This document shows positions 12,613 through 57,833 of a stretch of 64,000 nucleotides of DNA, in pieces. Origin of the DNA: Geosiphon pyriformis uo1 (taxonomy: Eukaryota; Fungi; Glomeromycota); the NCBI GenBank assembly GCA_016748015.1, contig JAAOMT010000602.1, positions 881,696 through 945,695 of the forward strand, read 5' to 3'. Below the pieces are notes generated by a model. The model was not told where the DNA came from. It saw nothing but the letters and a program-made list of their open reading frames with translations, and made no database searches. How positions within the stretch are numbered: the stretch's first letter is position 1; the number at the start of each line of letters is the position of its first letter. A program made the position numbers and the translations under genes.

Positions 12613-12614
12613 TT

Positions 12615-20571: not shown

Positions 20572-21528
20572 CTATTAATTAGCATGAAATTATCCTTATA
20601 ATTCCTATCATTAATTAACATATTAATATCAATTCAAATTATTACTTATTATTTAATCAATTTATCACATATCACAATTTAATTAATAATCCAATTAATA
20701 CAACAGAAAGTAAGATAATCAAATTACACAATACCCTGAACTTTGTAACATTCTAAAATTCACCGAAATTTACAGAAATTCACTGAAATTTATATGAAAT
20801 TTGCCAAAATTTATAGAAATTTGCCGAAATTATGAATAGTTCACCCAAATTAATCAATAGTTCAGTGAAATAACTTGTAGTTTATCAAAATGTATCTTTA
20901 GTTCACCAAAATTTGAGCAAAGAGAAAAAGTGCAAGTTTATAGACTAGTACTACAACAAGTTGTATCTTACTTTAGATTTATCACTTAAAACCATTTCTA
21001 CATACACAAAAAAAAATAAATATCAAATAAATCAAAAAACCAAATTCTTTAATTATTGCACTTGGAAAATCCCCAAAACCCAACTAATGTTTTGAAATTG
21101 ATTAGCTACCAATTTCAGTAAACTGTTAGTAACTTCAGGTCTGGATAGAAAACGTTTCCCTTAACAGAATTCTATTTCTTTTACATTTTTTTTATTTTCT
21201 TGTATTTTTTTATTACAATTATTAAGGTAGCCTACAGACAAGATTTCTGTAGAAGAGTTGACTTTCACAGCAAAGTAACTACACATTTTTAGTGAGCTTC
21301 CAGACAAGCAATTTCTGGGAAAGAGTTGACATTTACTACAACGTAACTACATAAAGTAACTGGCACAGAATTGGCTATTCCACTTATAAGCCCAGCAATT
21401 CAAATTATAGAAGATAATTTGAAGATAAATTCAGTTACTGGAGGTCCAACTACTTCTAGAAAACGTGAATTTACAACAAACAAACATTAACAACATTTAA
21501 GAAAAGAGACCAAAAACCTCTAGTAACA
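20552..21528 (+). repeat. B1 3' LTR
   Basis: Direct repeat of 11636-12612. Confidence 0.97.
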
Positions 21529-24018
21529 GCATCAAGAAAGTACATGTAAGTACAGGATCAATTCTCACTTTATTTCCAAAAGTAGTCACACAGAATCTCA
21601 AGCCAGTATTTTTTTTTTCTTTGCTATTGGTGCTTTCATTGGCAATACAATTTGGGTTAATAGTAATTAGAGTGCTACTCAACACATTCTTGATGTTGCT
21701 AGTGAGTTTTTCTGGATTAATAACATTTTTATTAACAATAATAAAACAGTGGCCATTTTCATTAACAGCAGAATCAGCAATCCTTCTCTTCTTATTAGTA
21801 GTGTGCCCATCTTTATTACCAAAAAGGGGGAGTCTCATTAGTATTTGGGTATTTTTTTTCAACTGAGGGTCTTTCAAAGCCTAGTTTAGCTAAGATGCAT
21901 TCAGATGTTTGTTTTTTTACCAATCTGGTTTTGAAAAAAGCTGTAACAGATAAGCAGTTCTTGTATTTAGTGTTAGTGGTTTTCTATCCTATTGTCAGTT
22001 ACAAAACTCAGTTTAACTTTGTTCCTGTTGGTGTGTGCAATAAGTAGGATGCTCTAATTCATAAAAGCTTGAAACTTAAGTCTAGTCTGTCTCTCAACTT
22101 TTCTGGTGATATGTTATATTACATCTCATTTTATGGTCTAAAGTCCTTCTTGCAAATTCAATTTAAAAGTAAGATTGCTTCACTTGTAAGTCTTGTAAAC
22201 TCTGGTGGGGTTTTGGGTTGCTTGTTCTCTCACCAGTCACATGACTTGCAGGTTCAATGTTGGTGCCCTGTTTATCTATTGGTTTCTCTTGTTTGTACTT
22301 ATATCAATGTCTCTAATAATTTTCTGGCGGACTTGGTTCATATTCTTCTTAATTGTAATTTATCTCTGAGTGGCCCTTTGGCCAATTCTTTTCAGTTATG
22401 TGATGGAGTGCCCATGTTAGTTGTTTTGGATAAGTCAAAGTTTGTCAAGTTTCTCTTTTCTTTTTGGCAATATGGTATTGCTTTTGTGAATCAACTTTGT
22501 GATCATCATGGTGCTGTTTTTGATTGGTACATCTTTAAGCAGTGGAAAAGATTGGACCTACGTAGTTCTGTTCTGGAGTGGTTCAAGCTGTCCACTACAT
22601 TTCTCAATGATGTAATCTTGTCTCTGACTTATTCCTTGGCTGTGTATGATGGTAGTTCTTCAGACATTCTTGGGTCTAGTGACTTTGTGTCTGTTTGTGA
22701 TCATTTTTTGCAGGTTGATAATGGCATTTTATTTGTGTACACAGATAGATCCTTGAAGAATCTGGGCACAGCTAGCTGTAGAGCTGGTGCTGTCACCTTT
22801 TTTGAGAACATTGGTTTGGGTTTGAGTGTTGGTGTGTTAGATTTGATGTCTTCTACTTTGGCTAAGTTACAAGCTATTGCTTTGGCTTTAGAGTGTGTTC
22901 TCTTATCTAGTTCTATTAACCTGTTTTTGGATAGTCAATCTGCTTTAGATGCTTACAAGTCAGAACTGGGTCTGATGTGTTCTGATTTTTGTAATCAGTG
23001 TTGGGTTGAGTGTCAACATATCGTTAATGTTATTTGTAATAAGAATTTGAGGGTTAGTTGGCACAAGGTAAAAGGCCATTCTGGTGTTTTGGAAAATGAA
23101 CATGCTGACATAATTACTGGTGCTGCCTTTCTTTTGGGCTGGTGTTTTCCTTCTCACTTGGATGAACATTTTATTGTGTCTGATTATAGTATAGTTTCTG
23201 GCAATTCTAGGCACTTTGTTTGTGATATCTATTGTTCCATTTGTCATATATGTTGAGAGATTGGTTCTGATTCGAGGTTTTTGGAGGGTGGTTTGCTTTC
23301 TGATGTTGATTAGATCCACCTCTTATTGATATGGCATTCTAATTTGCACATGGCTACTGGTTTTACTAGCCGATCCTCAGCTAATGCACACACGTACTTT
23401 ATGAAAGCTTTATATTATTGCTTGCCCATTGCCATTTGAAAACATCTTTATAGTAGACTGTATTTCAGTATGTTGTGCTTGTATTGTGATAAAGTGGAGG
23501 TGTCAGATTATGCATTTTCTTGTAAGGTTAACAAATTTGCCTGCTATCAGTTATTGGACTCCTACGTGAATTCTTAGAAAACACTTTTGGGCTTTGCTCA
23601 TTTTTCTTCATGTGTTTTGCAGTTGTTATTGTCCTGTTCTTTTGATTTTTCTGTATCTATGGCTCTTTTCAAGGGTTTTGTTTTTGATGATTGATTCTGC
23701 AAAGCTGTTTCCATTTTCCACAATCCTAAAATTGCTAGTGTAGAGGTTGTTAAATTTGTGTGCTCTTTCAGTATGGTTTTTAGGAATAATATCTGATTAG
23801 TTTGCACTAAACACCACACCTATATGAAAAAGAATGATTTAATTCTTCTTAATGGTTCAACACTTGTTCCAGTTTCTGGTTTGGCTTCAGGGTTTTCTGC
23901 TGGTGTATTAAAACTGTTTGGCATTATTGATGCTTTTGGTATGTATTTTGGTTTTTACAAATCTTGTTCATTTTTTTCAGGTGTTAGTGGCTTAGTGTCA
24001 ATTCATATAGCTGCATAG
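21529..24018 (+). pseudogene. LINE2 ORF2, 3' part (RT C-half, RNase H, C-terminal Zn finger)
   Basis: YLGIF RT motif; RNase H YTD(G)S..A(E)LQAIALAL..DSQ..WHKVKGHSG..NE.AD in ORF 22069-23256; CLYC..E...F.C. Confidence 0.9.
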
Positions 24019-24146
24019 TGTTGTCTTAATTGGCCTGAATGGCTGGTCACATGTAAAAAGTGCATAATTTACACCTAGTTTAAATTATTTCTTTGATATA
24101 TAGCACTAGGCTGTGTTTGAATCTTATTCAATAAAAAAAAAAAAAA

Positions 24147-25054: not shown

Positions 25055-28000
25055 ATAAAAATTTCTTTTTTTTCTATGTCTAAAATTTATCATAAAAAAT
25101 ACATTTATTGAATAAAAGTTTTTTTAATTATTTAGTACAATAAATTTAAACCATTTTTGCTCAATTACAAAACCACTATTGGCCTTAGTATTGCTGTTAT
25201 AAAAAAGTTTATTAAAGAATCTAACTTTAATTTTAACAATAAATCTATTTTATTAAGAAAAAAAAAGAAAAAAAGTGTTTTAAAAAATGGTATTAATGGC
25301 AAGAAAACTTCTACTAAAGAAGTAAGTAGTTGTTTTTGAGATTTAAAAACTGGTAACACTACTGAGTCTGATAGTGTTAACATAAAAAAAGAGTGTTTGA
25401 TTAAAGAAACCAGTATTAAATATAATAAAAAAGATGCTTTTGATAAAAAAAATTCTAATTAAACATTGAAAAATTTGTGAATAAAGACCAAGAAGGCTTT
25501 AGAAAAACCATTGGAAAAAATCAATTTTTTGAATAACACTAATAATAACATTTTATTGAAAGCTTCACTAATTTTGTTTTCTTTTTTGAAAAATCTAATT
25601 AATAATTTTGTTTAAAAATATTTTGTTTTGGATATTAGTCTAAATAAAATAATTAGGAAGTTTTCTTAAGAAAAACTCATAGTAATTAAAAAGTTGTTTT
25701 CAAAAATCAATGGTTTTGAAAAAGCATCAATTCCCTTAAAATTTGCTAAAATTATTAGAGTGATATTTATTTCTAAACCCAGTTTGGCACAAACTTCTAA
25801 AAAGGCTAAGAGTATAGAAATTTTGATAAATACTGATTTTAAAAAATCTGCTGAACAATCAAATCAGACTGTGATAATCAAAAAAATTTCTATTAAGACA
25901 TTAACTAAGACTGTACATGCTGTACTATCTGAATTTAAATTAATTAAGTTAATTAAGATACAATTAGTAGGAATATAACAGAAAGCTGTGATGAAATTTG
26001 AACATTCTAATTATGCTAATTTAGTTATAACTAAATAGTTTATTCTAATTAAAAAAAATGTTGTATAAGTTGTTAGAATTAATTTGGATAAGGAATCATA
26101 AAATACAAGAGATTATTATAGAATGCTGCTTTATATACTGCTAATAGGAATGAAGTTTCATGATATTTAAAACTTTGTTAAATTTGTAAATAAGAAAATA
26201 TGTATAATAAATTATTATCTAATTATATATATTCAAACTAAATATATAGTCATTTGTTTTAATTCTGTTGAGTTTCTAAATACTATAATAAAAACTACAC
26301 TAATGCTAAAGAATATTAATTTATGCTGGTTTTATTTAAATTATACCAAATATGTAAAGTATAAAAATTTAAGACACATATTATTGGGCTGTATTATAAG
26401 TAAAAAAGTTTCTTTTGGTAGCTTATATTATAAAGTTTTGTCAAATACAGATAAAAACAAACTAGTTACCATATATGTCAAGCATTTAATATTTGTTGTT
26501 TACTCTGTATTTTTTGGTAGCATTTTTTGGACTAAGATTGTTAATAAATCTTTATTTTTTTTTTCTGTATAGAATAATACAGCAAATTTTGGCTTTTCTT
26601 TAGAGATAAAGCCTATTTTGTTCATATTAGATAATTTAAATATTAAATTTGTCACTCTTAAATACAGTTTTACTAGCTTTGTAGAGCAGATTGATAAGCT
26701 GATTAAGAGATTAGATGTACTTGAACCAATAATTTCTTAGCTTAACTCTGAATGTCAGTTATTAATAACTTTTTTATCACAGAGTTAAAAAATAGACATA
26801 ATAATAAGTAAGAGTTTGAGTATAGTTACTAGTAGTAGAACTGTTATAGGAGTGATTTCTTTGGACATGACAGTAGTTTCTAAATTAAAAATTAGTATAC
26901 AAAGTCTCTTAAATACAATTCTAAGCCTCTTAGCCAAAGTAAATAATTTTAGTATAAATTTGGGTTTTTGTTTATCTTAATAATCAGTCTCATTTAGAGA
27001 ATTGTTATGTGTAATGTCAAGAATATAAACAATCTTATTAAACAAAAAGATATTATCTAATAGCATAAAAATAAAGGCAATTCTGTATTAATTGTTATGG
27101 AAATGAAATTAAAAAGCAAGGTTTGTTCTTGAATCATAAACAAATTTGATAAAATTTGGATGTTTACTTTAAGCATCAACACTAATTACATGGGTTTTGG
27201 TGTGACTATAATAGTCAATAATAATATTTTTAAGCATATATACAAAGTTTTAGAAATGACTGGCCAGTTTTTATTAATACAACTGCTTTTTAAAAATTGT
27301 TTTTCAGTCTTAATATTGAATTTATATGCTAGATACAACTTTGAAAAAGAGGCTGGTCCAATTCTATGAGATTAATTTAATGATAGCTAATGTTCTTAAT
27401 ACTAACACATTTATGATTTTAGAAAACAACTTTAATAAAAACAATTCTGATTACAGTGCTAATTTTTGTTTGATTTTTTTAATGGCTTTTCTTTACACCA
27501 ACTTTCTATGTAATCTAATTTTAAAAAAATTGAAAAATATATAGACTTTGTTTTAGTTAATAATAGTTTTTATAATTTATGTTTTAATTAACAAGTTTAC
27601 TGTTCAGATAAGTTTTTGATATTAATTACTTGGTTGTTTTAATAAATATTGGCTTGAAAAATCTGCTTAACTTTCAGCTTAATTTTGTGCAAAAAATAGC
27701 TGCCAAAGAAAACTAAAAATTTAAAGTCAATAATGTCAATAAAAGAATCTAAAAAAAGTTTGAAAACATATTATCAGCTGTTATTTTGACTATTACTAAT
27801 GGCTTTGACAAGTGCAAAAAGAGACTTGATCTTAATAAAATGTAATACTTACTTCATTAGGTGGTTTGTTCTGCCATTAAAACTATACTTTTAAAAACAT
27901 AATACCAAAATGATAGAACAGTCAAATGTGTTGCTTTTTCTAAATCTTATAAGCTTAAATTATTAATATCAAGAATCTTAAAAGCATACAAATTAGAAAA

Positions 28001-36483: not shown

Positions 36484-37188
36484 ATAATTATTCTTCGAAA
36501 TATTCAACAAATATTCCAAAAATTAATGTTAATCTTAAAAACACTTCCTGACTTATCCATAATGATTAATGGAAGTCAAATTAATTACATTCAGAAAGAG
36601 ACTATAGCTCCAGTAGTAAATAATTCTCAGAATTATTACTCTTATAAAAAAACAAGAAGTTACTCTGGAAATCAATTACCAGAACTTTTGAAACAAGCAC
36701 TAAAAAAAAACTTTTTAATTGCCCCTATTAACATTCTACCAAATGCTACAATCTAACAAAAACTTCTACTATTTCTTAATGAACAGAACAATAATCATAC
36801 CTTTATCTATAGATATTTTCATATTGGAAAAACACTTTATGAACGAAAATTGGAACTTGAAACAACAAACATCACCCCTAAAGCTATATAAAAACAAATT
36901 TACAATAAATTTAAGACAGCAGCTAGACCAACAAACACTTACTACAAACTTAAAGCAGCATTTAGACTCTATAATTTATTCAATACTTGTCAAAACGTCT
37001 TACAAAATCTAATACTTTATCCAATAAAAATACAATATATTTAAAAGCTCACAAAACTGAAATTTCAACAATTTTCAGACCAAATTACTTCAATTATTTT
37101 GGACCACTATCTTGATATCACAGATAGTGCTTGGATTTTGACAGAGCTCAATCTTGAGAAGAAAATTATGTTACCAGTAGAATTTTAA
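36484..37188 (+). pseudogene. B2 extra ORF3 (decayed; ATG>ATA)
   Basis: ORF 36526 MLILKTLPDLSIMINGSQINY matches B3 ORF3. Confidence 0.82.
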
Positions 37189-39930: not shown

Positions 39931-40921
39931 TATTACCAGAGGTTTTTGGTCTCTTTTCTTGAATGTTGTAACTGTCTGTTGGTTGCAAATTCACGTTTTC
40001 TAGAAGTAGTTGAATCTCCAATAACTGAATTTATCTTCAAATTATCTCCTATAATTTGAACTGCTGGGCTTATAAGTGGAATGGCCAATTTCTTGCCAGT
40101 TACTTTATGTAGTTACATTGTAGTAAACGTCAACTCTTTTTCAGGAATTGCTCATCTGGAAGCTCACTAAAAATGTGTAGTTACTTTGCTGTGAAAGTCA
40201 ACTCTTCTACAGAAATCTCGTCTGTAGATTACCCTAATGATTATAATAAGAAAACAAAAAAAAAATAAAAGAAATGTAAAAGAAATAGAATTCTGTCAAG
40301 GGAAACATTTTCTATTCAGGCCTGGAGTCACTAACAGTTTTACTGAAATTGGTAGCTAATCAATTTCGAAATGTTAGTTGGGTTTTGGGGATTTTCCAAG
40401 TACAATAATTAAAGAATTTGGTTTTTTGAATTATTTAATATTTATTTCTTTTTGTGTATAGGAATAGTTTTAAAAGATAAATCTAAAGTAAGATATATTT
40501 TCCAGAAGAAAAAAGCTCTTCTTTTATACAACTTGTTGTAATACTAGTCTATGAACTTGTACTTTTTCTCTTTGCTCAAATTTTGGCGAACTAAAGATAC
40601 ATTTTGATGAACTACAAGTTATTTTGCTGAACTATTGATTAATTTGGGTAAACTATTCATAATTTCGGCGAATTTCTTATAAATTTCGGCGAATTTCTGT
40701 AAATTTCGGCGAATTTTTGAATGTTACAAAGTTCAGGGTATTGTGTAATTTGATCATCCTACTTTCTGTTATACTAATTAGATTATTTTAATTGAATCAT
40801 AATATGTGATAATTGATTAAATAATAAATGATAATTTGAAATGATATTAATATACTAATGAATTATAGGAATTATAAGGGTAATTTTATGCTAATTAATA
40901 GCTAAAATTCTACTATTAACA
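39931..40921 (-). repeat. B3 3' LTR
   Basis: Repeat of 48061-49030 with one extra ~21-bp tandem unit. Confidence 0.95.
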
Positions 40922-41609
40922 TAATCTCCTCCTCAAGACTGAGCTCTGTCAAAGTCCAAGCACTATCTGTAATATTGAGATAGTGATCTAAAATAATTGA
41001 AGTAATCTCTTCTGAAAATTGTTGAAATTTCAGTTCTGTGAGTTTGCCAATGTATTGGACTTTCATTAGTTGCAGTATTAGATTTTGTAGAACATTTTCA
41101 CAAGTATTAAACAAGTCATAGAGTCTAAGAGCTGCTCTAAGTTTGTAGCAAATGTTTGTTGGTCCCACTGCTGTTTTGAATTCATTGTGGATTTGTTTTT
41201 GTATAACTTCAAGAGTGAGATTTGTTGCTTCAAGTTCCAGTTTTCGTTCATAAAGTGTTTTTCCAATTTGAAAGTATTTATAGATAGGGGTGTGTTCATT
41301 GTTCTGTTCATTAAGTAATAGTAGAAGTTTATGTTGCATTGTAACATTTGGTGGAATGTCAATAGGGGTAATTAAAAGATTTTCTTCTAGTGCCTGCTTC
41401 AAAAGTCTTGGTAATCTATTCTCAAAGTGACTTCTTGTTTTTCTTCTATAGGGGTGATAGTTCTGTAAATGATTTGCTACTGGGGCTGTGGTTTTTTTCT
41501 GAATGTAATTAATTTGACTTCCATTGATCGTTATAGATAAGTCAGGGAGTGTTTTCAAGGCTAACATTAATTTTTGGGATATTTGTTGAATATTTTGGAA
41601 AATAATCAT
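40902..41609 (-). CDS. B3 extra ORF3, intact 235 aa, unknown function
   Basis: Open ATG-to-stop frame; homologues at the same position in B1, B2, A1 and A2. Confidence 0.8.
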   Translation of the reverse strand: MIIFQNIQQISQKLMLALKTLPDLSITINGSQINYIQKKTTAPVANHLQNYHPYRRKTRSHFENRLPRLLKQALEENLLITPIDIPPNVTMQHKLLLLLNEQNNEHTPIYKYFQIGKTLYERKLELEATNLTLEVIQKQIHNEFKTAVGPTNICYKLRAALRLYDLFNTCENVLQNLILQLMKVQYIGKLTELKFQQFSEEITSIILDHYLNITDSAWTLTELSLEEEIMLIVEF

Positions 41610-41751
41610 GATAAAATTGACTAATTATGAAAAGAGAGAATAAAGAAAATTATTTTTGGATATGGGGTTTTTATTTGTTTTTGGGTTTGAGTGTTTTGTA
41701 ATTATTTACTATTTTTGTCTTTGTGTTTTTATTAGAGAATTATTGTAAAAT

Positions 41752-43137
41752 TTAAGTGTTTAAGTTTGGTTGTTGTTCTATTATAATTATTGGTTCTAAA
41801 TTTCGGGGAATATCTTCAAGATTAATTAAAAGGGAATGTGTACCAATTTGTGGAATTAATGGTTCAGAATTGTTTCTGGAATGATAGTGTTTCAATTTGT
41901 CTCCATATGCAACTTTTGCTAATATTTTGTCATCAAGTCTTAACTTATATGATCCATTGCCTAGAATTTTGTGAATATAAAATGGTTCATCCCATTTGTT
42001 TTCAAATTTCTCACTCCATTGTTTTTCAGCCTTAGTTCTGTATAAGAGAACTTTATTTCCAACTTTAAATTCGTTGGTAATAGGTGGTAATTTATTGTTA
42101 TGTCTTTTTTTTTGTTGAGCTTGAAAATGTTCAATATGAGTTGCTGCTATTCTTCTTTTTCCTTCCAGTGTACTAAGAAGAGTGTAGGCTCTTTTTTGGA
42201 GTGTTTCTTGAAAGTTTTCTTTATTAATTGGTTGCACAGGGTATGTTTCTACTGTGAAATTAATTGGTAATGTTGCTGTCCTTCCATAAGTTAAATCAAA
42301 TGGTGTGTGTTTTGTAGTATTTTGTTTTAGTGTTCTGTATGCTAGTAACACTAATGGAATAAAGATATTCCATTTCTGTTCAAAGTCTGTTAAGACTTTG
42401 GCTAGAGATTCACACAATGTTCTGTTGAAACGTTCTACAAGTTTATTTGTTTGAGGATAATAAGGTAATAATAGAGATCTTTTGACATTGAATTGTTCAC
42501 AAATTTCATGTATCAAGTTGTTCACAAAATGTGTTCTTTGATCAGATAAGAGTTCAATTGGGCATCTATGTCTACAAATAATGTCTTCATAGATGAAATT
42601 TGCTACTGATTTTGCATCTGCTCTTTGGATGGCTCTGGCTTCAGACCATTTGGTAAGATAATCCACTGCAACTGCAATATAATGATTTCCTTGGGTTGTG
42701 ATAGGTAATGGTCTGACTAAATTAATTCCAACTCTGTCAAAAGGTTGTCCAACTTTGATTGGATTTAGAGGTTCTGTGAGGTGGGTTTCTCCTCTTCTTT
42801 GACAATTATCACAAAATTCTATATATTGTCAAATGTTTTTTTACATGTGGGGCCAAAAATAATGTTCAAGGGTTCTTTAAATTGTTCTTTCTTTTCCCAA
42901 ATGTGCTGAAGATGGGTCTGTGTACATGTTGTATAAAATTGTTTTTTTTTCATTCTCTTGTACTAATCTGAGTGGCTGGTTTGGTTTTCTGTGATTTTTA
43001 TAATAGATTTTGTTCTGGTGTATAAAATATTGTTTTGATTGGTGTTGTAAGTGGTGTTTTTCACTTGGAGACCAGTTTTTTGGCATAGTAAGAGTCTCCA
43101 AATAATTTTTAAGATTGCTGTAGCTTCTGAGATCCAT
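41752..43137 (-). pseudogene. B3 integrase
   Basis: ORFs 42877-43137 and 41752-42666: DYLTKW.E, SDQ.THF, VERFNRTL, TPFDLTYG, KWDEPFY. Confidence 0.93.
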
Positions 43138-43194
43138 TCTTGTTTGGTTATTTTGTTGGTAAGTTGGTAAGTTGTGATGGAATTGTTGTTGGTA

Positions 43195-46100
43195 TTAATC
43201 TTGTCTCATTCTTGAGAGGCTATCAACATTAGTATGTAGTTTTCCTGGTTTGTGGTGTACAATATATCTGTAGTCTGCTAAGAAGTCATTCCATCGAAAC
43301 TGTTTAGCACTTTGTTTAGTTTTCTTTTTATTGAGCCATTTGTGGCCAATGTTGTTCATTATTATGTCAAATTCTTTTCCATTCTTTAGATATTGTTGAA
43401 AATGTTTAAGAGCCCAAATAACTACAGCAGCTTCTAATTCAGTTGAGTCATATTTGAGTTCTGTTGGCTTGAGTGTTCTACTGGCATAGGCAATAACTTG
43501 TTCTTGGCTATTTTTATTCAATTGTGATAAGATGGCACCAAATGCTATGTGTGAGGCATCAGTGGCTAATTGGAATCGTTTGTTGAAGTCTGAATAAGCA
43601 AGAACTGGGGCTGTTGTCAATTTTGTTTTGAGAATTTCAAAAGCTTTTTGTTGTTCTTTAGTCCATTTGTATGGTACGTTTTTGTTGGTAAGATAATTGA
43701 GTGGTTTGGCAATTTCTGAGAATTCTTTTATGAATTTTTGATAGTAAGAGACTAATTCCACAAATCCTCTTAGTTCTGTAGTATTTCTGTCTCTTATACA
43801 CATCTGATTCGAGAGAGTTTTTCTTCTAACAAGTGGTAGTTTTCAGTAATGGGAATGATATTTGGATTTGGGAGTAGAGTGTGCTTTACAATTTCGATGA
43901 AATTAGAGACAATTTGAGGGTTTTCATCTTGAAAGATATTGCTGTATATGATTCCAATTTCTAATTTGTTTAATAAAACAATAGGGTAATTATTGGGATT
44001 GTAGAATATAACTCGAAATTTTTTCATTCTTTTGGAAATATAAACGTTTGGAATTGATATTTCATGCTTCAAACAGATTTGTTTATTGGATTCAAAGATT
44101 TGTTGTGTAGTGGTGGGTTTTGAGCAAGTGTAAATTTCATGATGTTTTCCAAAAGGTGAAATGGTAATTGGCTGAAGAAGTTAAAAAATCTGGTGAGATT
44201 CATTTTGTGTATTAAAAACTATGTTTACTGAGACTGTAAATCATCCAGTTGAACCAAAACCTTGAGTTCCTTTTTCACTTTTTCCCAATTGTTCTCTGTT
44301 GTTTACTGATTGTAAACCCGAAATGTTGATTAAGGGTAAGTAAATTGCTTGAGCAATTTTTTCAGCATGTTCAATTTTGAATAGTTTGTCTGTCTCATTC
44401 TGTAACATGATGGTAATGTCTCTAGTGTATCTTGCATCTATAACTCCTCCTCTAATATTGATTTCTTTGCTCGCCAATGATGATCTGGAAGCAATTTGAA
44501 CCATTGCTCTTGGTGGAATTTTGAGAACAATTTTGAGATTGATTTTTGTCAAAGACTTTGGTTGGAGAATCAAAGTATCTTTTTCTGGGTATCTTAGGTC
44601 ATATCCAGCATCAATTTCGTGTGCTTTTTCTGGTCTGATTCCTTGGCCATGGTTGTCAAAATATTTAAGTTGTAGAGGTGGTTGCTTTTCAAGAAAATAG
44701 ATGGGAGTGGTTGATAGTTCTTTTACTATTTCAGATACTCCAAATTCGATTTCATTTTCATCATTCTCATTTGACAGAGGAATGCTAAGAGCATAACATT
44801 CTAAACACTATTGGTCATCACAAGGCATAACACATTCTTCACACAATTGAATGTTTATTGGCTCTAATCATTGAACTTGAGCTTCTTTGGTCGGATATGT
44901 GTGGCTTGCAATTTGGTGGTAGGTTTCTACTTCATCTTCATAATCAAATCCAGCTAATTCTATGGTATACTCAATATATTCAGCTTCTTTCATTTGGCAG
45001 ACATCTTTTTGGGTGGCTCCATTGATCAATGCCATTGCTAAGTCAAAAATCATTTCAGCATCATGAGGGTAGTGGTAAAGTTTATTGAAAGCACTGTTGT
45101 ATGCTGTATCAAATAGTGTTCCTCTTCTGACTTTTTCCGAAATTGATAGAGCATATTGACAGATTTGATCACATACTCCTTTTTTTATTGCTACATTAAT
45201 TCAATTGCATTCTTCTGGTAGCATTTCTCCACATGTAAGGCAAGATGTGTTGTCTTATTTTCCACTTCTTTTTAGAGATCCAAATTGTTCTCTATGGCAT
45301 GCTTTGCAAAAGTAACAGATACAAGTTTCATATTCCTCTTCTGGAGAAATACATGCTCCCATTGATGAAAGTTTTTTGTTGCAATCTTTGTATTTGAGTG
45401 GAATATACGATGGTTGTTTCCATGGTTCTGGTGTAGAATATCTAACTTTCTTCCATCCCCTTGATTCTTCAAAAATCTCTTGTTTGGTTTTTTCAGCCCA
45501 ATTGGATGTTGATTCAAGAGCCATGTAGGTTTCAGTAAGTGGCATTTCTTTTTCCTCTTCAAATTCAAATACTGGAGCTTTTTCTGATTGTTTGTTAAAG
45601 GTATTACAGGTTGCAGGTACTATGGTATATTGTCCTTGGTATGAGATTTAAGTTCTTGAGTTTCCCAGTTCAGGTTTGCATTGGCCTTGAGAAGCCAATT
45701 ATTTCTGACTAGAGCTTGGTATTGGGGTGCATCCATAACAAGAACTTTAACTGGAATGGTGATTCCATCAATTGAAAAAGAGAAATCATTAATTTTTCCT
45801 ACTGGAGTCTTCTTCATACCATCAGCTGTGACAATAATTGTTTGAGCTGGTCTGTCTACATTTCGTTTGAGTTGTTGCATCAGCTGGTAAGTGATGATAC
45901 TTCCAGCTGATCCACTATTTAAGATTAAGAGAATGAGTTTTCCTTCCACTGTAGTTTCTGTGTACATGGCAGTAATTGCTTTCTGTTTATTGACTGCTGC
46001 ATTACTAAGCAGAAATGGTGATTCATTTGCTTCAAATTCAAATGGAAATATATCTGACAGATTAGCATTTTGGGCAATTTAAGCTGGTAGAATGGTGTGG

Positions 46101-48015
46101 TTAGAAGGGTTTGATCTTAGCGCTGCAACTTCATCTTCAGAAATGCAGTTTGTTGAAAATCCGATTTCTCTGGTATTGTAAGATAACTGGGTTGAGTATG
46201 ATAGTGATTGGGTCTTTGCTGACCCAAATTTCGAGGAACCAACTGGTTATTTGGATTGATTCTGTTGTGGTTATTTTGCAATTAATTTTGGGATGTGAAT
46301 TGGTTATGTTAAACCAATCTTTTTGCTGGTACTTGATATTGTTGAGTGGGTGGTATCTGATATGGCTGAATTGGTAAAGGTTGCTAATATTGTTGCTGCA
46401 TTAATTGTGGAGCTGGTGGGTAGTAGTTTTGATTTTGTGGTCTTGGTGAATAATAGGTTGGTGGTAAAGATTGGTAATAGGATTGTTGTGATGAAAAGTA
46501 ACGTTAATTACTCCTGTTTTGTTGGTCTTTTTGCAATTTCCTACAATCTCGTTTTTAGTGTCCTGGAATTCCACAATAATGACAATTTTGAGATTGGTTG
46601 TTGGATGGTAATCCAAAATTGTTTTGGTTGTGTCATTGTGGGGGTTGATATCTTTGTGGTTGTTGCTGCTGTTGTTATTGGTTTGTAAAATAGCTTTCAA
46701 CTTTCTTTGTGAGTTGGTCTATCTTTTTTTCAGCTGCTAAGCTGGTTTCTCCAATTGCAAAATTTACAAGCTTGGTGTGATTTGCTTTTTCCATTGCCAT
46801 TTCATAGCTCTTTGCATGTCTAATAGCAGTTGCTAAGTCTGCTAGAGCATGTGAATGAACTTTCTTAATCAGTTTGTCTTTTAATTTTGCTATAAACTGA
46901 TCCAGAATTTGAGCATCAGAATAGTAGTTATTGGTTTCCAATTGTCAGATTTGTTTGAGAAGTTTGTTAAATCTTCCAAGATAGGTCATAACAGATTCAG
47001 ATGTTTCTTGTTTGATATTGTGAAAGTGGTTTCTAAGAGTGATAGAGGTATTGTTGTTGGTGAATTGTTGTAGAAAAGCATCTTTGAATGCTTGTCAGTT
47101 TTCAAATGGTTCTTCTAAATTTTCAAACCATTTTCCTGCTGTTCCTTGGAGAAAGTAGGAAATTGCTTTAAGCATTCTCGCTGCAATCCAACCATTTGTG
47201 TCTCCTGCTTTTTGAATCTTGTCAAGCCATTCTTGAAGACTGGTATCATTGTCTTTACTAGTAAATTCTGGGATTTTTGCAATGTAAGCAGTTGTCATTT
47301 CTTTTTTGTTTTCTGTAATTTCTTCTGGTTCTGATTCAGTTTCTTTACTTTCCAAGCTTTCTGAGTGATTACTTTCGTTTTCCTGTAAGTAATCAATGAT
47401 ATTGGCACTTGTTGATATTGGTTTCTGCTGTTGAGTAGGATTTCTAGGTAACTGAAAATCTTCTGGTCTGGAGAAACGGCTAAGTGGTAAACTTGGTGTT
47501 TGTGGTTAAACAAGTGAAATTGGAAATGGTGTAATAGAAAGTGGTAATTTGACACTGGTTCCTTGTTCAGGTGTTTGCAAGTGTTTGGCAGTTGTCTTTT
47601 GTAGTGTTGGAGTGTTTGGAATGGTTCTTGAGTATTGCTTCAATTTTTGTTTGCCTTTGTTGCTTGTTTCTGTCTCTGATTTAAAATTAAAAAAATATTT
47701 GGGCTGTATTGGGTATTTTTCTTCACAATACTCAATAATGTTAAAATTAAGTTCTTGGAAGTAGGTATCAAGTGTTTCACTGTTCAGGTCTTCTGTTCTC
47801 AATTGTGAATAGTGCACTAAATTATTGTAGAGGTTGCTTCTAACTTCTGAAATGTTGTAGTTTCCAAAAAGATAATTGTTGATGTGGTTTTCAATGTAAT
47901 AGTATACTGATTTCTTTACAACTTCAATTCTGTCTGGAATGTTAAATCTTTGCTTGCAGTGGGTGTAAATTAACTTATAATACTCTAGAGTTGCTGTGTC
48001 TGGTGTGGTCACCAC
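43195..48015 (-). pseudogene. B3 Gag-PR-Cys-rich-dUTPase-(RT core missing)-RNaseH
   Basis: ORFs 47506-48015, 45620-45967 (protease), 44241-44573 (dUTPase), 43195-43803 (RNase H ATDAS..ELE); ~820 bp of RT absent at 43787-43805. Confidence 0.92.
43787..43805 (+). other. Tn5/Nextera 19-bp mosaic end (adapter), probable assembly artefact
   Basis: Exact CTGTCTCTTATACACATCT at the point where B3 lacks RT; yields the MCIRDR ORF start. Confidence 0.95.
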
Positions 48016-48060
48016 TTTGAATTTGTTGTTGCTGTGTTATTTCCATAGAAGAGCACCAAA

Positions 48061-49030
48061 TGTTACTGGAGGTTTTTGGTCTTTTTTCTTGAATGTTGTA
48101 ACTGTTTGTTGGTTGCAAATTCACGTTTTCTAGAAGTAGTTGAACCTCCAATAACTGAATTTATCTTCAAATTATCTTCTATAATTTGAACTGCTGGGCT
48201 TATAAGTGGAATGGCTAATTTCTTGCCAGTTACTTTATGTAGTTACATTGTAGTAAATGTCAACTCTTTCCCAGGAATTGTTTGTCTGGAAGCTCACTAA
48301 AAATGTGTAGTTACTTTGCTGTGAAAGTCAACTCTTCTACAGGAATCTTGTCTGTAGACTACTCTAATGATTGTAATAAGAAAACAAAAGAAAAATAAAA
48401 AAAATGTAAAAAAAATAGAATTCTGTCAAGGGAAACGTTTTCTATTCAGGCCTGGAGTCACTAACAGTTTTACTGAAATTGGTAGCTAATCAATTTCGAA
48501 ATGTTAGTTGGGTTTTGGAAATTTTCCAAGTACAATAATTAAAGAATTTGGTTTTTCAAATTATTTAATATTTATTTCTTTTTGTGTATAGGAATAGTTT
48601 TAAAAGATAAATCTAAAGTAAGATACATTTTCCAGAAGAGAAAAGCTCTTTTTTTATACAACTTGTTGTAGTACTAGTCTATGAACTTGCACTTTTTCTC
48701 TTTGCTCAAATTTTGGTGAACTAAAGATACATTTTGATGAACTACAAGTTATTTTGCTGAACTATTGATTAATTTGGGTGAACTAATTATAATTTCGGTG
48801 AATTTCTGTAAATTTCGGCGAATTTTTGAATGTTACAAAGTTCAGGGTATTGTGTAATTTGATCATCCTACTTTCTGTTATACTAATTAGATTATTTTAA
48901 TTGAATCATAATATGTGATAATTGATTAAATAATAAATGGTAATTTGAAATGATATTAATATACTAATGAATTATAGGAATTATAAGGGTAATTTTATGC
49001 TAATTGATAGCTAAAATTCTACTGGTAACA
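48061..49030 (-). repeat. B3 5' LTR
   Basis: TG...CA termini; followed on the minus strand by TTTGGTGCTCTT. Confidence 0.95.
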
Positions 49031-51040
49031 CCATAATCAGGAAATCAATATCAAAACTCTGATTGCCAATTCTAAACTCCAAATAACTATTAAAATCAAG
49101 ATTAATCTACTTACCAGTCCATGATGCAACAACCAATCTATTAACCACCAGTATATCAAATTCCAGTATATCAATTACAGGCCATCTATCAACCACAGTC
49201 ACCAACAATTTATCAGCAGTCCCAGTTAATCTATTAAACACCCCAAATTCAAATACTGCCACAAAACTTATCTTAAAATGGAACCCAAAGACTGAGAATG
49301 ACACAACAAAACTGAAAATTGATGATAGTAGTACATCAACCAATTTCCAGTTTATCAAATCAACCATTAGGATCATGCCAGCAGAGTTCAGGAGCTGGGT
49401 ATAACCAAAACCTGAGTTCTTAGAACTACTTAAGTCTTCTAGTCACCCCAGAAGATGCTGCATCCAGTGAACAAAAAACCAATCAGAAGCCACTTACCAG
49501 TAACATTCCACTAGCCACCAGCACTAAAAACAAATCACTTGTTGCCATATTCCCATTTGAACTTGAGGAAATCACATTAGTTCCATTATTCAGTAGAGCC
49601 ACTCTGGACACCAAACCAATAACCACAATGTATACTGATGCCAAAGTCAATGGTCAGTATATTAAACTGATTTTGGATAGTGAATCAGCTGGCAGCATTA
49701 TTACCAAACAACTCATGGATCAATTAGGTCACCGAGTTGACAGAGCTGCCAGTGCAAGGATTATCACAGCTAATAGAGCAACCAAAACTCCTATTGGTGA
49801 GATTGACAACTTTCCTTTCGAAGTTAATGGCATTACAGTCCTTATCAAAGTTTTGGTAATAGAAGCCACTCAATACCAAGCCTTAATTGGTAATAACTGG
49901 CTCACTAAAACAAATGCTATACTTGATTGGATGACTCAAGAACTAGCACTCAGCAAGAACAGTCAACACATGTGAGTACCAGCTATGTGTGGTCACTTCA
50001 AGATGACCACTACAACAACACCACTGATTGAGTTCAAGGAAAAAAAAGAAAAACCTATTTGGGAAGCCTACCAAGTATTGTGGGCCAATAAAGACCACAA
50101 CAAACTGCTGCCAATACTATTGTGGCACGACCAAGAGAAAAAAAAACAGAAAGAAATCAAACTTACCTGGAATACCAACAACAACTGGGAAATCAATGAA
50201 AACCAGAAGAAAATAAAAAATTGGGAGTGGGAAGAGAATAAAAATGGGAAAGGCAAAGGAAGAAAAGTCACCACCCACAGCCACCTATGCTCCATATACC
50301 CACTCATCACCACAACCAATCAACTATTATCAACCAAAGCTTGTATGCATTGATTGTGGCAAGAAACTGTCAACAATGGGCACATGCTGTGGTGATGATG
50401 AAGAATACTTAGCAGTAACTAAGTTCTATTGCTGCACATGCATCATAAAAAGGTTTGAACGACTGAAAAAACAAAAAAAATGGGATAATCAATCTTGTCT
50501 TGCTTGTGGAGAAACTTTTTTGGATGAAAAAATATGGAACAACATTCCCAAGTAAGGAGGAATATGTGACAAGTTATGTTAATACACAATCTTGATAAGT
50601 AACTGGGTTAGAAAAGAAACACCAATAGAAGCAGCCTGGAGAAGAGCAGTACAACAATTGAACAGTTGTCCACATGACAATGACAAAATTTGGAGAATGG
50701 CAAATAAAAAAATAGAAGGGACAACACCCAAAGAAATCAGAAAGATCAAAAACAACCTACTGGAACCTATGGAACTCAACTAGAACAAAGAACTAGTCAT
50801 AAATCTCCTAGAACCAGAGGAATTTCATGAACACTATCAAACTTTGGCATCCACAAGAGAAGAACAGGAAGAGCATTTAACACAGTTAAACACTCGACTA
50901 TGTGACCACTGTTTGATTTCATGTAACTTCCAATATTGTAATGAGTGTGACCTCATTTACAATCTACCACCACACATGATTTACATGATCTCAGAGGAAG
51001 AAAAACCAATCAGCAGCTGCACATTAGAATCAGAATCAAA
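49031..51040 (+). pseudogene. A2 Gag tail, protease and Cys-rich domain
   Basis: LILDS(G)SAGSII protease (49628); CIDC, CCTC, CLAC, CDHC and CNEC pairs (50244-50950). Confidence 0.88.
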
Positions 51041-51178
51041 AAAAAAACTTCTTTCTCTCCTTTGTCCCAAATTCCTGAAAAAGAGTCATAATTTGAAAGA
51101 AGTTTTTTCTGTTATTTCATACTGTCGTCCAACACTTTACAAGAAACAAATCCTTTTGTTGTTGATCTGGCTGCTCCC

Positions 51179-53019
51179 ATGAGTGATACTGGTGCTAAAA
51201 AAAGGTCGACCAGAGTTCCAACTTCTGGTTCAGTTGGTAGTGGTTCAAGTTATAAGATCAAGAAACCTCTCGGTGGTGCTAAGCTATCAAGTAATGGTGT
51301 GACTCTCAAAAGTAGTGGGTCTGGTCAAGTAGTCAGGCAGTTTAATAGCATGGATACTGATGGGGAGACTTTTGATGGTGAAGGAATATCTGATTCCAAG
51401 ATAAATACACTCCAAGCCAAGCATTTTATTAATAGTGCAATTATTGGCTCCCCCTTCGGCTCTATTAATTATGACATGGAAGAGGAAAAAGAGGTTTCTC
51501 TTCTTCCCCATAAGTCTTTCTTTTTGGATAAGGTGTGGATTGATCCCAAAATCATTAAAACTCAGATGGAAGTAGCTGTAAAAAAATCTTTTGCTTTGGA
51601 CATCAATCTTTTGGCTGTAGAAGGGAAATCGGCAACAGCCAAAACTCAGGTCATAAGAAAATTATTTTCAGGAATCAATGGTTTTGGGGGGGCCACTACT
51701 CCCTCAAAATTTGAAAAGATTATCAGATCAACGTTTACTTTGTCAGAAAGCATGGAAAAGGCCACATCATTGGCCAAAGAAAATAACATCATAGTAAACA
51801 GCAATCTTAAGAGACAAGGAATTTGCTCAGATCAGGCTGTAGTCATTAAGAAAATTCTATGAATATGCCAAAAAAAATGATTGTCGCTGCAGTATCCAAG
51901 TTTGGACAAATTAAGTCAATTAAAATCTAACTTATTGGTTTATGGCAGAAGGCTGTAGTAGAATTCGCCAAATTGAAACAGACTGTGTTTTTGGCTGCTA
52001 AGTGGTCTTTTCTAATTGGTAAAGACTCGGTTTGTGTGGCTATGGTGGTGGGTGATTATGAAACTTGGGCATCTAGAAATCAGTTCAGGGCGCTTTTGTT
52101 TACTTTGCCAATGGGAACAACTGTCCATGATCTCGGTAATCTATTGGATGGGACTGGTGGTAAAACTTGTATAATCAACTGTTCTTTGGAGACTGGAAAT
52201 AGATTTCGCTGTACTGTGGTTGGCTTTGTGTCTGACAAATTGTTGGAGTCTGCTTTTCACATGAAACCAATTCTTGGCAGTGTAAGGCTTTCTTGGGCTA
52301 GATTGGATCTGGTTCGGTACAAGCGGTGTGGAAAATTTGGCCACTCTGCTTTGGAGTGTGATGCTGAGGTCGCTTCTACTTCTGTGTCTTCCAAGTCTTT
52401 TAAAAGGGTTGTCTCTGATAAAAACCTTCTCCAGTTGGCCCATTTGTATGCGAAAAAAAGTGTGCCTATTTCTCATCTAGTTGCTTTTGGTGGCAAATTA
52501 TGGACTCAAGTAGTCTCTTTTGCACTCTTATTTAATAATCCTCACTTTGGTTTTGATCTTGGTTTTGATTTCTTTTCTTCTGGTGCTTCAGATGTGATTG
52601 GTTCCTCTCCTTATATGGTTCCTGCTAGTACATCTTTGGAGACTTGTCTTGCTTCTTTGAAGTGTTCTGTGGAGCTTCTTGTGGATAAAATATCTGGTAT
52701 TGTAAGCAAACTTGAAAATTTGGTCTTGGTGCCTCCAGCTCTTACCTCCTTTTCTCAGAATTTGGTGGTCCCAGTTGTGGCAAATATGGAAATTAATTCA
52801 GACATGGCTCTGGATGATTCTAAGCCAATACTTCTTTTCTTCTCTTTGGTTTCCTCTAGTACTTCAGAATTAGGTTCAAGTAGTTCAAAAATTTTGACCT
52901 TAAAAGTGGGCTGTTTAGAGTCAAAGTTGATGGCCCTCGAGGCTTTGGTTTGTTCAGCTTTGGAGAAGTTAGATCAGATGTGTACTGGCTTGGGTTCTGC
53001 AGTTTCTTCTTTATCTTAA
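51179..53019 (+). pseudogene. LINE4 ORF1
   Basis: ORFs 51179-51862 and 51973-53019; (C>Y)KRCGKFGHSALEC knuckle; C-terminal heptad-like LESKLMALE. Confidence 0.88.
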
Positions 53020-56000
53020 TGAGTAGTTTCATGTGAAAGATTGTTACATGCAACATTAGAGGGATGAACAATCCTGCTAAGCAAGCTGACGTCATTTGTT
53101 GGCATAAGAAAATGGACAATATGATCTCAATAATTACTGAAACAAAATTAAAGAGTAGAATTTGTCTTTGGATTGTTGATAGATTTCCTGGAGTATGTGT
53201 ATTCATTTCTGGTCTGAATTCTGGTTATTTAGATTTTGGTGTGGCAATAATTATGAATGCTGCTCTGGCAAAACATGTATGCAAGATCTTTGAGATACCT
53301 GGTCATCTTTTTTCTGTTAGGCTGCTTTTTAAAAATAAACTCTCGGTTTCTGTTTTGGGTCTGTATACTAGCACTTTACCATTAACATGCTTTTCACAAG
53401 CAAATGATGTGAACGTCTTGATTTTTAAGGCTGTGAACGAATCTTTTTTTGTGATTTTGGGTGGCAATTTTAATGAGGATGGCTCTTGCAAGAGTGTTAG
53501 CTTCAAGAAGTATGGTAGCTTGGACTTGGTCAACTCTCTCGTTGGTAATGATTTTCTAAGAGCTTCAACATGGAGCAATTCTAGAGGTGTGGCAAAGACA
53601 ATAGATTACATATTTGTTTCTTCTAATTTAGTTAACACAATAGTGGATCATAGTGTTCTGGATGTTGGTGAATTCTTTAATACTGATCACCAATCTATTT
53701 CTGTATCAGTCGGTTTGGGTGGTTTGTTGGACATATATCTATGTTCACTTCATAAACAGGCCAACAAGAACCATTGGAAATATAACTTCAAAAATGCTGA
53801 CACTACTTTATGGTTAAAATTCAGGGAGATGATGATGGTAAATGCTGTTATGTTTTCTGATGATTTCGTGGCTGCCAATGAGCTTTCAGATTTGGATGCC
53901 ATGTGGGATATTATTTGTAAGATAATGTGCTTTTCAGTAGATGAAGTTTTCAAAAAAAAATGGTTTAAGGAATATGATAGAGTTTTCACCAAAATTTCAT
54001 CTAGGTTTCACAAACTAGAACTTCTGGTATCTAAATTAGTTAGGGCCTCCTATTTGGTTAATAATAACAATTTTGTCTCGTTGCTCAATACTTGGAAGTC
54101 ACTCAATTCCGACAATGCAATTGTGATTAGGTCTCTCTTTCTCTCTGGTTCATTCTTTAATAACATTTGTTCAGCTCTGTTCAAAGTCAGAAAATTTTAT
54201 TGTGCTTCAAAGTTGTTAGAATCTAAATGAGCCAAGGAATCACAAATCAAATCTGCTATTGAGAAGAGGATAGAGAGCTTTGTGTCTAACAAGGGTCACA
54301 TTATCAGAAGTGTTTTGGAAAGGCCTTTTTGCAAGGTGGTCTTGGATCATTTGGTCATAGGTAATGAGCTAATTTTTGAACCAGACCCTGTCAAATCTAA
54401 GGTGGATGAGATTATGGAAGGTTGGATTCGAAAACATGGTATAGTTCTTGATATCCCAGAAGACTAGTCTTGTCAATATCAGCCTTTGGACCATGTTTTT
54501 GATGGTGTTTTTTCTTATGTCATGAGCTGTGTGGGTTTTGATGAGCTGTTTGGTGTGGTTTCAAACTTGCCTGATGACAAAGCTGCTGGTTTGTCGGGCA
54601 TTTTCAATGAACTTTAGAAGCATTGTAACATTTCAGTTCTTGGTATGCTCTTGGTGCTCATTAACTCTTGTCTTTCTGGTAAATCTGTGCCCGGAGTCTG
54701 GAAGGAGGCTTGGGTTTCAATAATTTCCAAACCTTATGATTAGAAAGGCATACTCACGAACACTCGTCCTATCACTTTAATTGAAACAGCTCAGAAAATT
54801 CTGTCCAAAATTCTTTCCGATAGGATTTTTTTGGCTTGTAGCAAATTTGATGTTCTTCATGAGAACAATTTTTCAGTGCTCAAAAGCATTATGACTCAGT
54901 CTCCCATTTTTGCAATTGGTTCAGTGGTCAAAGATGTTTTTGAGAAGAACTGGGAGCTTTGGCTGGTTTTGCAAGACATGCAAAAGGCATACAACTCAGT
55001 TGGTTGAATCATCTTAAGAAGAGTTTAATTAGAATCAAAATGTGTAGCAAGTTTATTCGGTTTTTTGGGGGTATTCATGGCAGTTGTACTAACTGGGTAA
55101 TGACCAATTTTGGGTTGACAGATAGTTATTGTGTGCATGATGGCTTGGATCAGGGAGAGGTGTTTTCACCTCTTCTTTGGCATATATTTTATGATCTTCT
55201 TTTGTGTGAAGTCAAGAGACAGGAAAGTGTGTGTAATTACAGGCTGAATTCTCATTTTATTGCTAAGACAGGCCATGTGAAGTTTCAAGCTAGATCAACA
55301 TCTTTTTTTGCTGCTGGTGCTTTCGTGGATGATATGATCTGAATTGGTAGTAGTCAGATTGTGACACAATATATTCTCAATATTGCCAGCAAGTTTTTTC
55401 AGATCAATAACATTTCGATCAACAATGATAAGACAGTGGCCATTCCCATCAACTGCAAAGTTGCAAATTTTTCTTTATTAATCAGTGATGCTCCTATTTT
55501 GGTGGCCAAAAAAGGGGAACCTCATCGTTACTTGGGCATTTTTCTCTCAACTGAGGGCTTGTCACGACCCAGTTTGGCCAAAGCTCATTCAGATGTCTGA
55601 TTTTTTACCAATCTTGTGCTGAGGAAAGCTATCTCTAACAAACAGTTTTCATATCTGGTTTCAGTAGTTCTTCATCCTATTGTCAGTTATAGAACTCAAT
55701 TTAGCTTCGTCCCTCTTAGTGTTTGTAGTAAATAGAATGTCTTGATTTGCAAAAGCCTCAAATTCAAAGCTGAACTGCCCCAGGATTTCCCTAATGATGC
55801 ATTCTATTACCCATCCCTTTATAGTTTAAAAACTTTTGAGCAAATTCAAGCTGAATATAAGTCAGCATCTGTGGTGTGTTTTGCCAATTCTGGTGGAATT
55901 TTGGGATGTTTGTTTCTTCATAGAGCTTATGAATTACAGGCTTTAAGTTGGCACCCTATTCATCCTTTGGTGTTTCTGGCTTGTCTGAAAATTAGCCTCA

Positions 56001-57695
56001 CAAACAATTTTTTAGCAGGTGTCGTTCATATATTTAGAGATTACAGTTTATCTTTAAGTGATGCTGGACCTAGTGCATTCCGGTTTTGCAATAGTACTCC
56101 CATGTCTTTGGTGCTTGGTGAGTCAAATTTCTCCAGGTGTCTCCCTTCACTTTGATGGTATGGTGTTGTCTTTGTGAAACAATTATGTGGCCGTGAAGGT
56201 GGTGTTTTTGAGTGGGTGATCTTTAAGTATTGGAAAAGACTGGATTCATGTGGCCCCATTCCTGAGTGGTTTGTCTTGTCTATTAAATTTCTGAGTAATA
56301 TGGTAACTTTTTCTGTGTGAAATCTATTATTGGATAATGCTAATGCCTCTAGTGTTTTGAATTCCGTTGAGTTTGGTTTGGTTTGTAATCACTTATCTGG
56401 TCTGGGTGCTGGCTGCATCTCAGTATACACAGACAGTTTTTTGTTTGGCTTGGGGTCTGTTAACATGAGGTCTGGTGCAGCAGTTTTCTTTGATGACATT
56501 AACATGGGTATGGGAGTCAAGGTTTCAGGTTTGATGTCTTCTACACTAGCAGAATTGCAGGCGATAGCACTTGCCCTTGAGTGTGTTCTAGTGTCTAGTA
56601 GTGTTAGTTTGTTCTCAGACAGTCAAGTGGTATTGGATGCTTGCAGATTTGAATTAAGTATGTCTTGTCCAGATTTCTGTAATTGCTGCTGGGTGAAATG
56701 CTGTCATATTGCAAATTTTGTATGCTCGAAGAGATTGAAAATCACCTGGCATAAGGTTAAGAGCCATTCTGGTAATTTTGGCAACAACCGTGCTAATGAG
56801 CTGGCTGGCTATGCTGCTTCCTCTAATTTGATTTTTCCCCCTTGGTTGAATAAAAGATACATTTTGGCTGGTGGTAATATTGTTTAGACATTTCGTTCAT
56901 GATGTTTTTTGTTCTATTCATCATCTGTACTGGGAGTATGGTTCAGACACCTATGTTGTCACTCAAGATTTGTTGGCAGACATTAATTGGCGGAGGTCTG
57001 TCTTTGTCTGACATTCTAATTCACATATAGCTGCTGGTCCTACTAGTAAATGCACTACTGGCATTCGCACATATTTCATGAAAGCTTTACATCACAGACT
57101 GCCTGTCGCTGTTTACAAATGCCTTTATGATAAAGGTTATCCAAGTGTAATCTGTTTATTTTGTGGCTGTGTGGAGGTCTCTGACCATGTTTTTTCCTGT
57201 GATGCTGATGTTGCTACTCGTGTTTGTCTTCTGGGGGACTACACAATGATCTGGGAGAATATTTCTGGCCTTCGTCATTCCACTTCTAGTGTGTTATAAT
57301 TTTTGTCCTTTTGTGTTTTGAACATTTTGTTCCGTATTGCCTTGTGCAAAGGATTTGTTTTTAAGGAGTGGTTTCATGAAATAGTCTCTGTGTTTGGTGA
57401 TTCTAAGAGTACTGGTGTGAAGGTTGTGAACTTTGTGTGTGCTCTGTGTCTCGCTTTTAGGGATGAGATTTGGTCAATCTATGTTAAGTATTGTGCCTTT
57501 ATGGAAAAGCGTAATTTGATCTCTTGTGATGGTTCTTTGCCTGATTCTAAATCTGGCCTATCTTTTGTTTACTCTGTTGGGGTTATCAGATTGTTGGATA
57601 TTGATGTAGCCTTAGGTGTTAGTTTCAGTTTTCATAGGTTTAGTTTGTTTATTTCTGATGCTTTTGATGTGGTTTCTGTTAGTATAAGTGCTTAA
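53019..57695 (+). pseudogene. LINE4 ORF2: APE-RT-RNase H-Zn finger
   Basis: ITETKL, GGNFN, IDY, TDH; GLDQGEVFSP, AFVDD, YLG; YTD..AELQAI..SDSQ..KVK.HSG..N.RA; CLFC..E..DH.F.C. Confidence 0.93.
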
Positions 57696-57833
57696 TGTTG
57701 TTTTGATTGGCCAGAGTGGCTGGTCATGTGTGGAAAATGCATAATTTGTACCTAATTTAGATCAATTATTTGATGTATTTCATTAGGTAGCATTTGGATT
57801 TCACTCAATAAATATGTAAAAAAAAAAAAAAAA

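Follow-up and report, generated by a model that had tools for sequence, protein, structure and literature searches.

ORF3, a selectively maintained accessory gene in dUTPase-carrying Ty3/Gypsy retrotransposons of the fungus Geosiphon pyriformis

Additional open reading frames (ORFs) between pol and the 3' long terminal repeat (LTR) are well documented in plant and insect retrotransposons and, as far as the available text of these sources goes, their function is mostly unassigned (PMC7264820; PMC11728184; PMC13547354). Among fungal Gypsy elements, an 'add. ORF' of unassigned function and a dUTPase located between protease (PR) and reverse transcriptase (RT) are on record in the accessible part of one account (PMC2864245), and a survey of fungal LTR elements describes most of them, in its available portion, as encoding gag and pol only (PMC3248453). 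Striking LTR expansions are reported for Geosiphonaceae and Ambisporaceae (PMC11952901). The window analysed here is a stretch of 64,000 nucleotides (nt) from Geosiphon pyriformis uo1 (assembly GCA_016748015.1, contig JAAOMT010000602.1, positions 881,696 to 945,695), AT-rich in composition and built in bulk of nested repeats, including five Ty3/Gypsy copies of two families (B1, B2 and B3; A1 and A2). The third gene of these elements, ORF3, has long been maintained as an accessory gene by a Ty3/Gypsy lineage that also carries a dUTPase and occurs in G. pyriformis and in metagenome contigs.

ORF3 has the layout of a sense additional ORF (aORF-3S), being a separate same-strand ORF between pol and the 3' LTR in all five copies and in a related metagenome locus, L001. 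It shares slot, orientation and presence in all family copies with the 'env-like' aORF-3S of Athila and Bagy2 (PMC7264820). Plant and insect aORF-3S are often transmembrane, whereas ORF3 has no transmembrane segment and no detected sequence likeness to them, and in family B, unlike in those elements, ORF3 overlaps the polypurine tract (PPT) and the U3 region of the LTR (PMC7264820). The dUTPase between PR and RT is common to PosPlaTy3-5 (PMC2864245) and, here, to B3 and A2; the elements of that account bear a chromodomain, as far as its accessible text describes them, unlike the present ones, and their extra ORFs may or may not belong to the ORF3 family. The ORF3 family is not described in the literature searched, Repbase, Dfam, GyDB and paper supplements lying outside that search, and it is apparently a protein family without earlier description, although the slot that it occupies is of a known kind. 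Against the usual description of fungal Ty3/Gypsy elements as gag plus pol, it is a third gene retained by lineages that share only ~55% integrase identity.

Layout, homology and selection of ORF3

In B3, ORF3 (40902-41609, minus strand) lies between the integrase and the 3' LTR and is open from ATG to TAG over 235 amino acids (aa), behind a non-coding spacer of 142 nt that separates it from the integrase (41610-41751, minus strand). The frames of the other copies, all on the plus strand, are interrupted by five premature stops in B1 (19864-20571), three in B2 (36484-37188), where one codon is deleted and the start is lost (first codon ATA), ten in A1 (2134-2766) and six in A2 (61714-62373), both A frames terminating ahead of the PPT. 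All five were detected by tblastn, and a profile of the family run over the window found nothing beyond them. No copy is frameshifted within ORF3, where internal indels are whole codons only, unlike the spacer beside it, in which several non-triplet indels distinguish the copies. In family B, a pyrimidine tract and an AG stand 11 nt upstream of the ORF3 ATG. This may be a splice acceptor of family B; it is not conserved in L001, which has no AG near the ATG.

The original prediction placed ORF3 in the env position of both families and held it to be homologous between them, and both claims are borne out. The A and B proteins are aligned by hhalign with a probability of 91% (E 9.6e-7) over 184 columns, and their Smith-Waterman score with tails trimmed is 124 against a shuffle mean of 39 +/- 6, a value reached by 0/1000 shuffles. 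Among the matching A-B blocks that had been quoted, those of the N-terminus and the core exist, but the C-terminal one (EEEIMLIVEF against KEEIILLIEI, each followed by a stop) is not protein homology, as discussed below.

With the B3 protein, 205 relatives were found, the best 120 of 205 all being hypothetical proteins of Geosiphon pyriformis; the A2 protein gave 104 relatives, all named as hypothetical proteins of this fungus, and a search with the ORF3 profile returned 350 proteins, all from Geosiphon among the 120 matches listed. At least 224 Geosiphon 'hypothetical protein' gene models (120 plus 104 clusters) are pieces of retrotransposon ORF3 and not host genes. Further Geosiphon families (P0257-P0261) and two metagenome proteins (P0255, P0256) link A and B at 27-32% identity; for these bridging relatives, 10 of 39 matches were looked up and four more were already named. 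No match was obtained in a metagenome scan with P0256, in viral contigs scanned with the ORF3 profile and the L001 integrase, or in phages by tblastn. Three phmmer candidates (P0251-P0253; an ant protein, a clam protein and one from an unnamed record) are tandem-repeat proteins and were dismissed as repeat artefacts.

The metagenome locus L001 comprises pol domains (RT, RNase H and integrase) with two in-frame stops, a 316-nt spacer, ORF3, a purine tract and the start of an LTR. Its ORF3 is intact (230 aa), and its stop, like that of family B, falls within the LTR. Compared with B3, identity is 52-59% in the integrase and 30% in ORF3. An integrase tail is also included in 22 gene models among 265 database relatives, the integrase coming first in 21 of the 22. 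From the layout of L001 and these gene models, it follows that ORF3 travels with this pol lineage.

Selection was measured on the five window copies. The LTR pairs of B1 and B3 differ almost exclusively by transitions (78/82) and the CpG observed/expected ratio of the window is 0.15, which together point to heavy cytosine deamination. Because a transition-only spectrum lowers simple dN/dS in any frame, sites were stratified, and the raw Nei-Gojobori ratios (0.25-0.37, against 0.37-1.0 in wrong frames, which are lowered as well) were not trusted alone. Among B1, B2 and B3, transitions affect 28/186 synonymous versus 21/268 non-degenerate positions at A/T sites (p 0.012) and 26/54 versus 47/149 at G/C sites (p 0.023); no synonymous excess appears in shifted sense frames, and only the antisense frame sharing third positions mirrors the signal. 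Between A1 and A2, synonymous and non-degenerate differences amount to 75/213 versus 88/393 (p 5e-4), and to 11/54 versus 35/552 for transversions (p 1e-3), shifted frames giving p 0.19 and 1.0. As controls, RNase H displays a comparable signal, and that of the integrase is weaker and confined to transversions (p 0.014); the power of the test is therefore limited. A check of the dN/dS type, by which the proposed selected accessory gene was to be judged, therefore supports it, with a synonymous excess in the ORF3 frame of both families and none in the shifted sense frames. ORF3 is almost certainly a real, selected, non-Env accessory gene.

The B3 copy had been described as intact and the other four as decayed. 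Its frame is indeed open and the others carry stops, but B3 has decayed too: its LTRs differ at 43/976 sites, ~1.5 stops are expected in its ORF3 since insertion, with a probability of 0.21 that none occurs, and 11 of its residues are each found in <10% of 43 relatives. The B3 frame is probably open by chance, and B3 is not a specially preserved copy.

On the sequence of the LTR boundary, the C-terminal A-B block is a DNA effect rather than protein homology. In B1-B3, the frame continues across the PPT into the LTR and reaches its stop codon ~20 nt within U3, while the TAA of A1 and A2 sits 13 nt before the LTR, ahead of the claimed block; a stop in U3, formerly assigned to B1-B3 and A2, is thus correct for the B copies and wrong for A2. 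Among A-type database proteins, 42/104 end at this pre-LTR TAA and 0/104 extend into the block, and in family B the residues encoded beyond the LTR boundary differ from one LTR to another. A GAGCTC motif and the PPT (40922-40946, minus strand) lie inside ORF3 in family B and are kept as DNA: 30-32 nt at this place show 93-94% identity between B and L001, the sole DNA match outside pol, the remainder of ORF3 being no longer alignable as DNA between the two. GAGCTCA, which precedes the PPT, is common to A, B and L001 (40922-40946; 62360-62386; L001 3092-3123), and since the frames in which A and B read it differ, it is taken to be a cis element.

Predicted fold and candidate roles of the ORF3 protein

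In seven ORF3 proteins, the maximum hydropathy over 19 residues ranges from 0.27 to 1.29, hence no transmembrane segment, with one or two cysteines and isoelectric points of 5.4-9.3; the net charge of B-type proteins is near neutral. Sequence searches against Pfam, PHROGs, NCBIfam and PDB gave nothing near cut-off, and no known Gypsy domain, a finding that was to count against the original prediction, was matched. No Env or fusion-protein family of Pfam was matched by 25 alignment members and 8 further queries. The former statements that ORF3 lacks a transmembrane segment and is not an Env agree with these results. An FtsQ model matched 9/25 members (best E 5e-4) and was rejected, its score on B3 being ~12 bits for a cut-off of 366. 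Foldseek comparisons with PDB and viral models yielded no E <0.001.

The ORF3 product, which matches no known family, is predicted to be helical and soluble. Its full-length model has a predicted local distance difference test score (pLDDT) of 73 and a predicted template modelling score (pTM) of 0.60, and consists of a helix and a beta-hairpin, a disordered basic linker (residues 40-60) and a helical core. The N-terminal helix and beta-hairpin (residues 1-37; 41499-41609, minus strand) are kept across families and modelled with a pLDDT of ~55-65, the helix being amphipathic in the model. The all-helical core seen in the model covers residues ~85-212 (40974-41357, minus strand), and the L001 core folded alone reaches pLDDT 90.9 and pTM 0.84. 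Within the core, a helix-turn-helix-like pair (residues 133-167; 41109-41213, minus strand) has a conserved turn of the form G-x-[TN]-N together with basic positions, and may bind DNA. Seven sequence groups share a Y-x-Y-F-x-I-G helix, a G-x-[IL]-T turn and the G-x-[TN]-N turn that joins two helices; the basic positions conserved across these groups precede the second helix or lie on it. The likeness of the predicted core to helix-turn-helix domains of the ParB type is weak and stays below threshold. By profile, HTH_ParB (PF17762) and DUF1016_N (PF17761) each reach an hhalign probability of 0.3%, and the best Pfam match has E 0.12 and 12.9 bits for a cut-off of 32.8. For the nucleic-acid-binding, trans-activator or anti-silencing role proposed in the original prediction, the model offers weak structural hints.

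Candidate binding sites are present in U3. In B3, three near-palindromic repeats AAATTCGCCGAAATT with a period of 20-21 nt occupy 40661-40717 (minus strand), and the B1 5' LTR holds four related copies. These repeats are family-specific, with the near-palindrome in B, a GAATT-GGATTC type in A and a distinct 13-mer in L001. In some B LTRs, about half of the surviving CpGs fall in U3 repeats. A working analogy is offered by VANC of the Arabidopsis VANDAL elements, a fast-evolving protein paired with family-specific repeats, for which the available part of the source reports binding and demethylation (PMC5735166). As in that system, an element-encoded fast-evolving protein coexists here with family-specific tandem repeats in non-coding DNA (PMC5735166). 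VANDAL is a plant DNA transposon, and no homology between VANC and ORF3 was detected (PMC5735166).

ORF3 is tentatively taken to bind DNA and to regulate the LTR of its own element, possibly via its putative helix-turn-helix, a reading that is quite possible though short of probable. The protein would be translated either from a separate message or from a spliced one and enter the nucleus, where helices 133-148 and 153-167 would recognise the family-specific U3 repeats; once bound, it would raise LTR transcription or shield the LTR from host silencing in a VANC-like manner. If so, ORF3 would, by activating or protecting its own LTR, let a transposon counter silencing in a fungus that methylates, and it would also be a small sequence-specific DNA-binding module directly testable with intact natural copies. 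A more extended version, in which a Glomeromycotina Ty3/Gypsy lineage has its own sequence-specific transcription or anti-silencing factor with a ParB/YhcG-type helix-turn-helix of prokaryotic or phage origin, co-evolving with palindromic U3 repeats and having helped the LTR expansion of Geosiphon, so that a fungal retrotransposon would activate itself in the way of VANC or Tat, is doubtful. No significant sequence or profile match links ORF3 to the helix-turn-helix of ParB, Spo0J and KorB or to the N-terminal domain of YhcG, and ORF3 has neither the CTPase domain of ParB nor a PD-(D/E)XK nuclease domain, nor a prokaryotic context.

ORF3 could instead be a cofactor of integration or nuclear import that binds integrase or complementary DNA and tethers the pre-integration complex to chromatin, thus replacing a chromodomain. 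This somewhat unlikely alternative is favoured by the integrases of B3 and L001, which have no chromodomain match, by the adjacency of the ORF3 gene to the integrase, by the nesting of copies (A2 in a B2 LTR, B3 in A2) and by the nuclear-import or targeting role proposed for plant additional ORFs in the available text of two sources (PMC7264820; PMC11728184). However, a repeat-rich genome alone predicts nesting, and the ORF3 frame is separate, behind a stop and a spacer, and does not extend the integrase.

An antagonist that binds a host silencing or restriction factor through protein contacts, without touching nucleic acid, is an unlikely explanation. ORF3 diverges faster than pol (30% versus 52-59% identity), like the accessory transposable-element proteins with many predicted host partners described in the accessible part of one study (PMC13547354), the near-neutral charge of B-type proteins suits such a function, and the strong CpG loss of the host and the almost purely transitional LTR differences are in its favour too. 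The conserved turn motif and basic positions, on the contrary, fit a nucleic-acid surface.

ORF3 might also bind RNA, and would then coat, export or protect genomic RNA or suppress RNA silencing. Language-model features brought up closterovirus coat-protein clusters for two different queries (scores 0.92 and 0.93), and the helical fold and conserved basic linker agree with such a role, which is nevertheless unlikely as well. Of 256 features, 144 and 156 are shared, fewer than the 170 that true family members typically have in common, and the recognition is sub-threshold; no coat-protein Pfam family (PF01785) matches, no flexuous RNA-virus coat protein is included among the 50 structural matches listed, and a Ty3 capsid gag is already present in the elements.

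A membrane protein like Env, or one for movement between cells, as suggested by the env position, the sense orientation and the possible upstream splice acceptor of family B, is highly improbable given the low hydropathy, few cysteines, compact soluble helical model and lack of an Env family match. Least credible of all is a frame arising as a by-product of DNA or RNA constraint near the 3' end with no protein selected. This holds for the final 10-15 family B codons, which overlap PPT and LTR, but for codons 1-212 the results on selection and homology refute it, protein homology persisting beyond DNA alignability along with the in-frame synonymous excess, the unshifted frames beside an indel-bearing spacer and the confident fold.

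Host elements and other features of the window

B3 (39931-49030, minus strand) has the parts of an LTR retrotransposon, namely two LTRs, a 4-nt target-site duplication (ATGG), a primer-binding site and a purine tract. Its 3' LTR occupies 39931-40921 and its 5' LTR 48061-49030 (both minus strand), the latter followed by a primer-binding site starting TTTGGTGCTC, which is common to families A and B (12613, 29309, 38103, 48060). The pol order of protease, RT, RNase H and integrase, read from Pfam matches in B3 and B2, is that of Ty3/Gypsy, and a Ty3 capsid gag was detected by Pfam in A2. In B3, a broken pol (protease, dUTPase, (RT) and RNase H) spans 43195-46078 (minus strand) and is followed by the integrase core (rve) and C-terminal part (41752-42828, minus strand) with a weak Tf2-type SH3 (SH3_Tf2-1); protease, dUTPase, RNase H and integrase stand in Gypsy order, each interrupted by stops. 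No chromodomain was matched by Pfam in the integrase tail of B3 or L001, and the elements are thus not assigned to the chromoviruses. The dUTPase lies between protease and RT in both families, at 44241-44807 (minus strand; Pfam E 2.7e-22) in B3 and at ~57960-58400 (plus strand; frameshifted, Pfam E 4e-4) in A2.

The other copies are inserted into one another or cut by the window. B1 (11636-21528, plus strand) is flanked by the duplication GCAT, B2 (plus strand) starts at 28334, and A1 is truncated by the window start. A2 (37264-63225, plus strand), ~26 kb long with its passengers, lies ~90 nt inside the B2 3' LTR, with the duplication TTAC/TCAC. It was later invaded by B3 between gag and protease and by insertions resembling long interspersed nuclear elements (LINEs) near 50000-57800. 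B1 and B3 are 96-97% identical over ~500 nt of the integrase (18900-19400 and 42050-42550, respectively) and 82-89% elsewhere, a pattern that suggests recombination or gene conversion between subfamilies.

Beyond the Gypsy copies, a 1.7-kb AT-rich repeat occurs twice in opposite orientation (4238-5921 and 25355-27054; 68% identical). Two plus-strand ORFs without Pfam match, at 6771-7505 (244 aa) and 51179-51862 (227 aa), probably belong to LINE-like elements, either as remnants or as frames on the opposite strand. At 21533-24146 and 52795-57828, signals of RNase H and endonuclease accompany LINE-like remnants. The halves at 9207-11632 and 21533-24146 match 52795-55216 and 55220-57828, and from this correspondence they appear to be one LINE-like element split by the insertion of B1.
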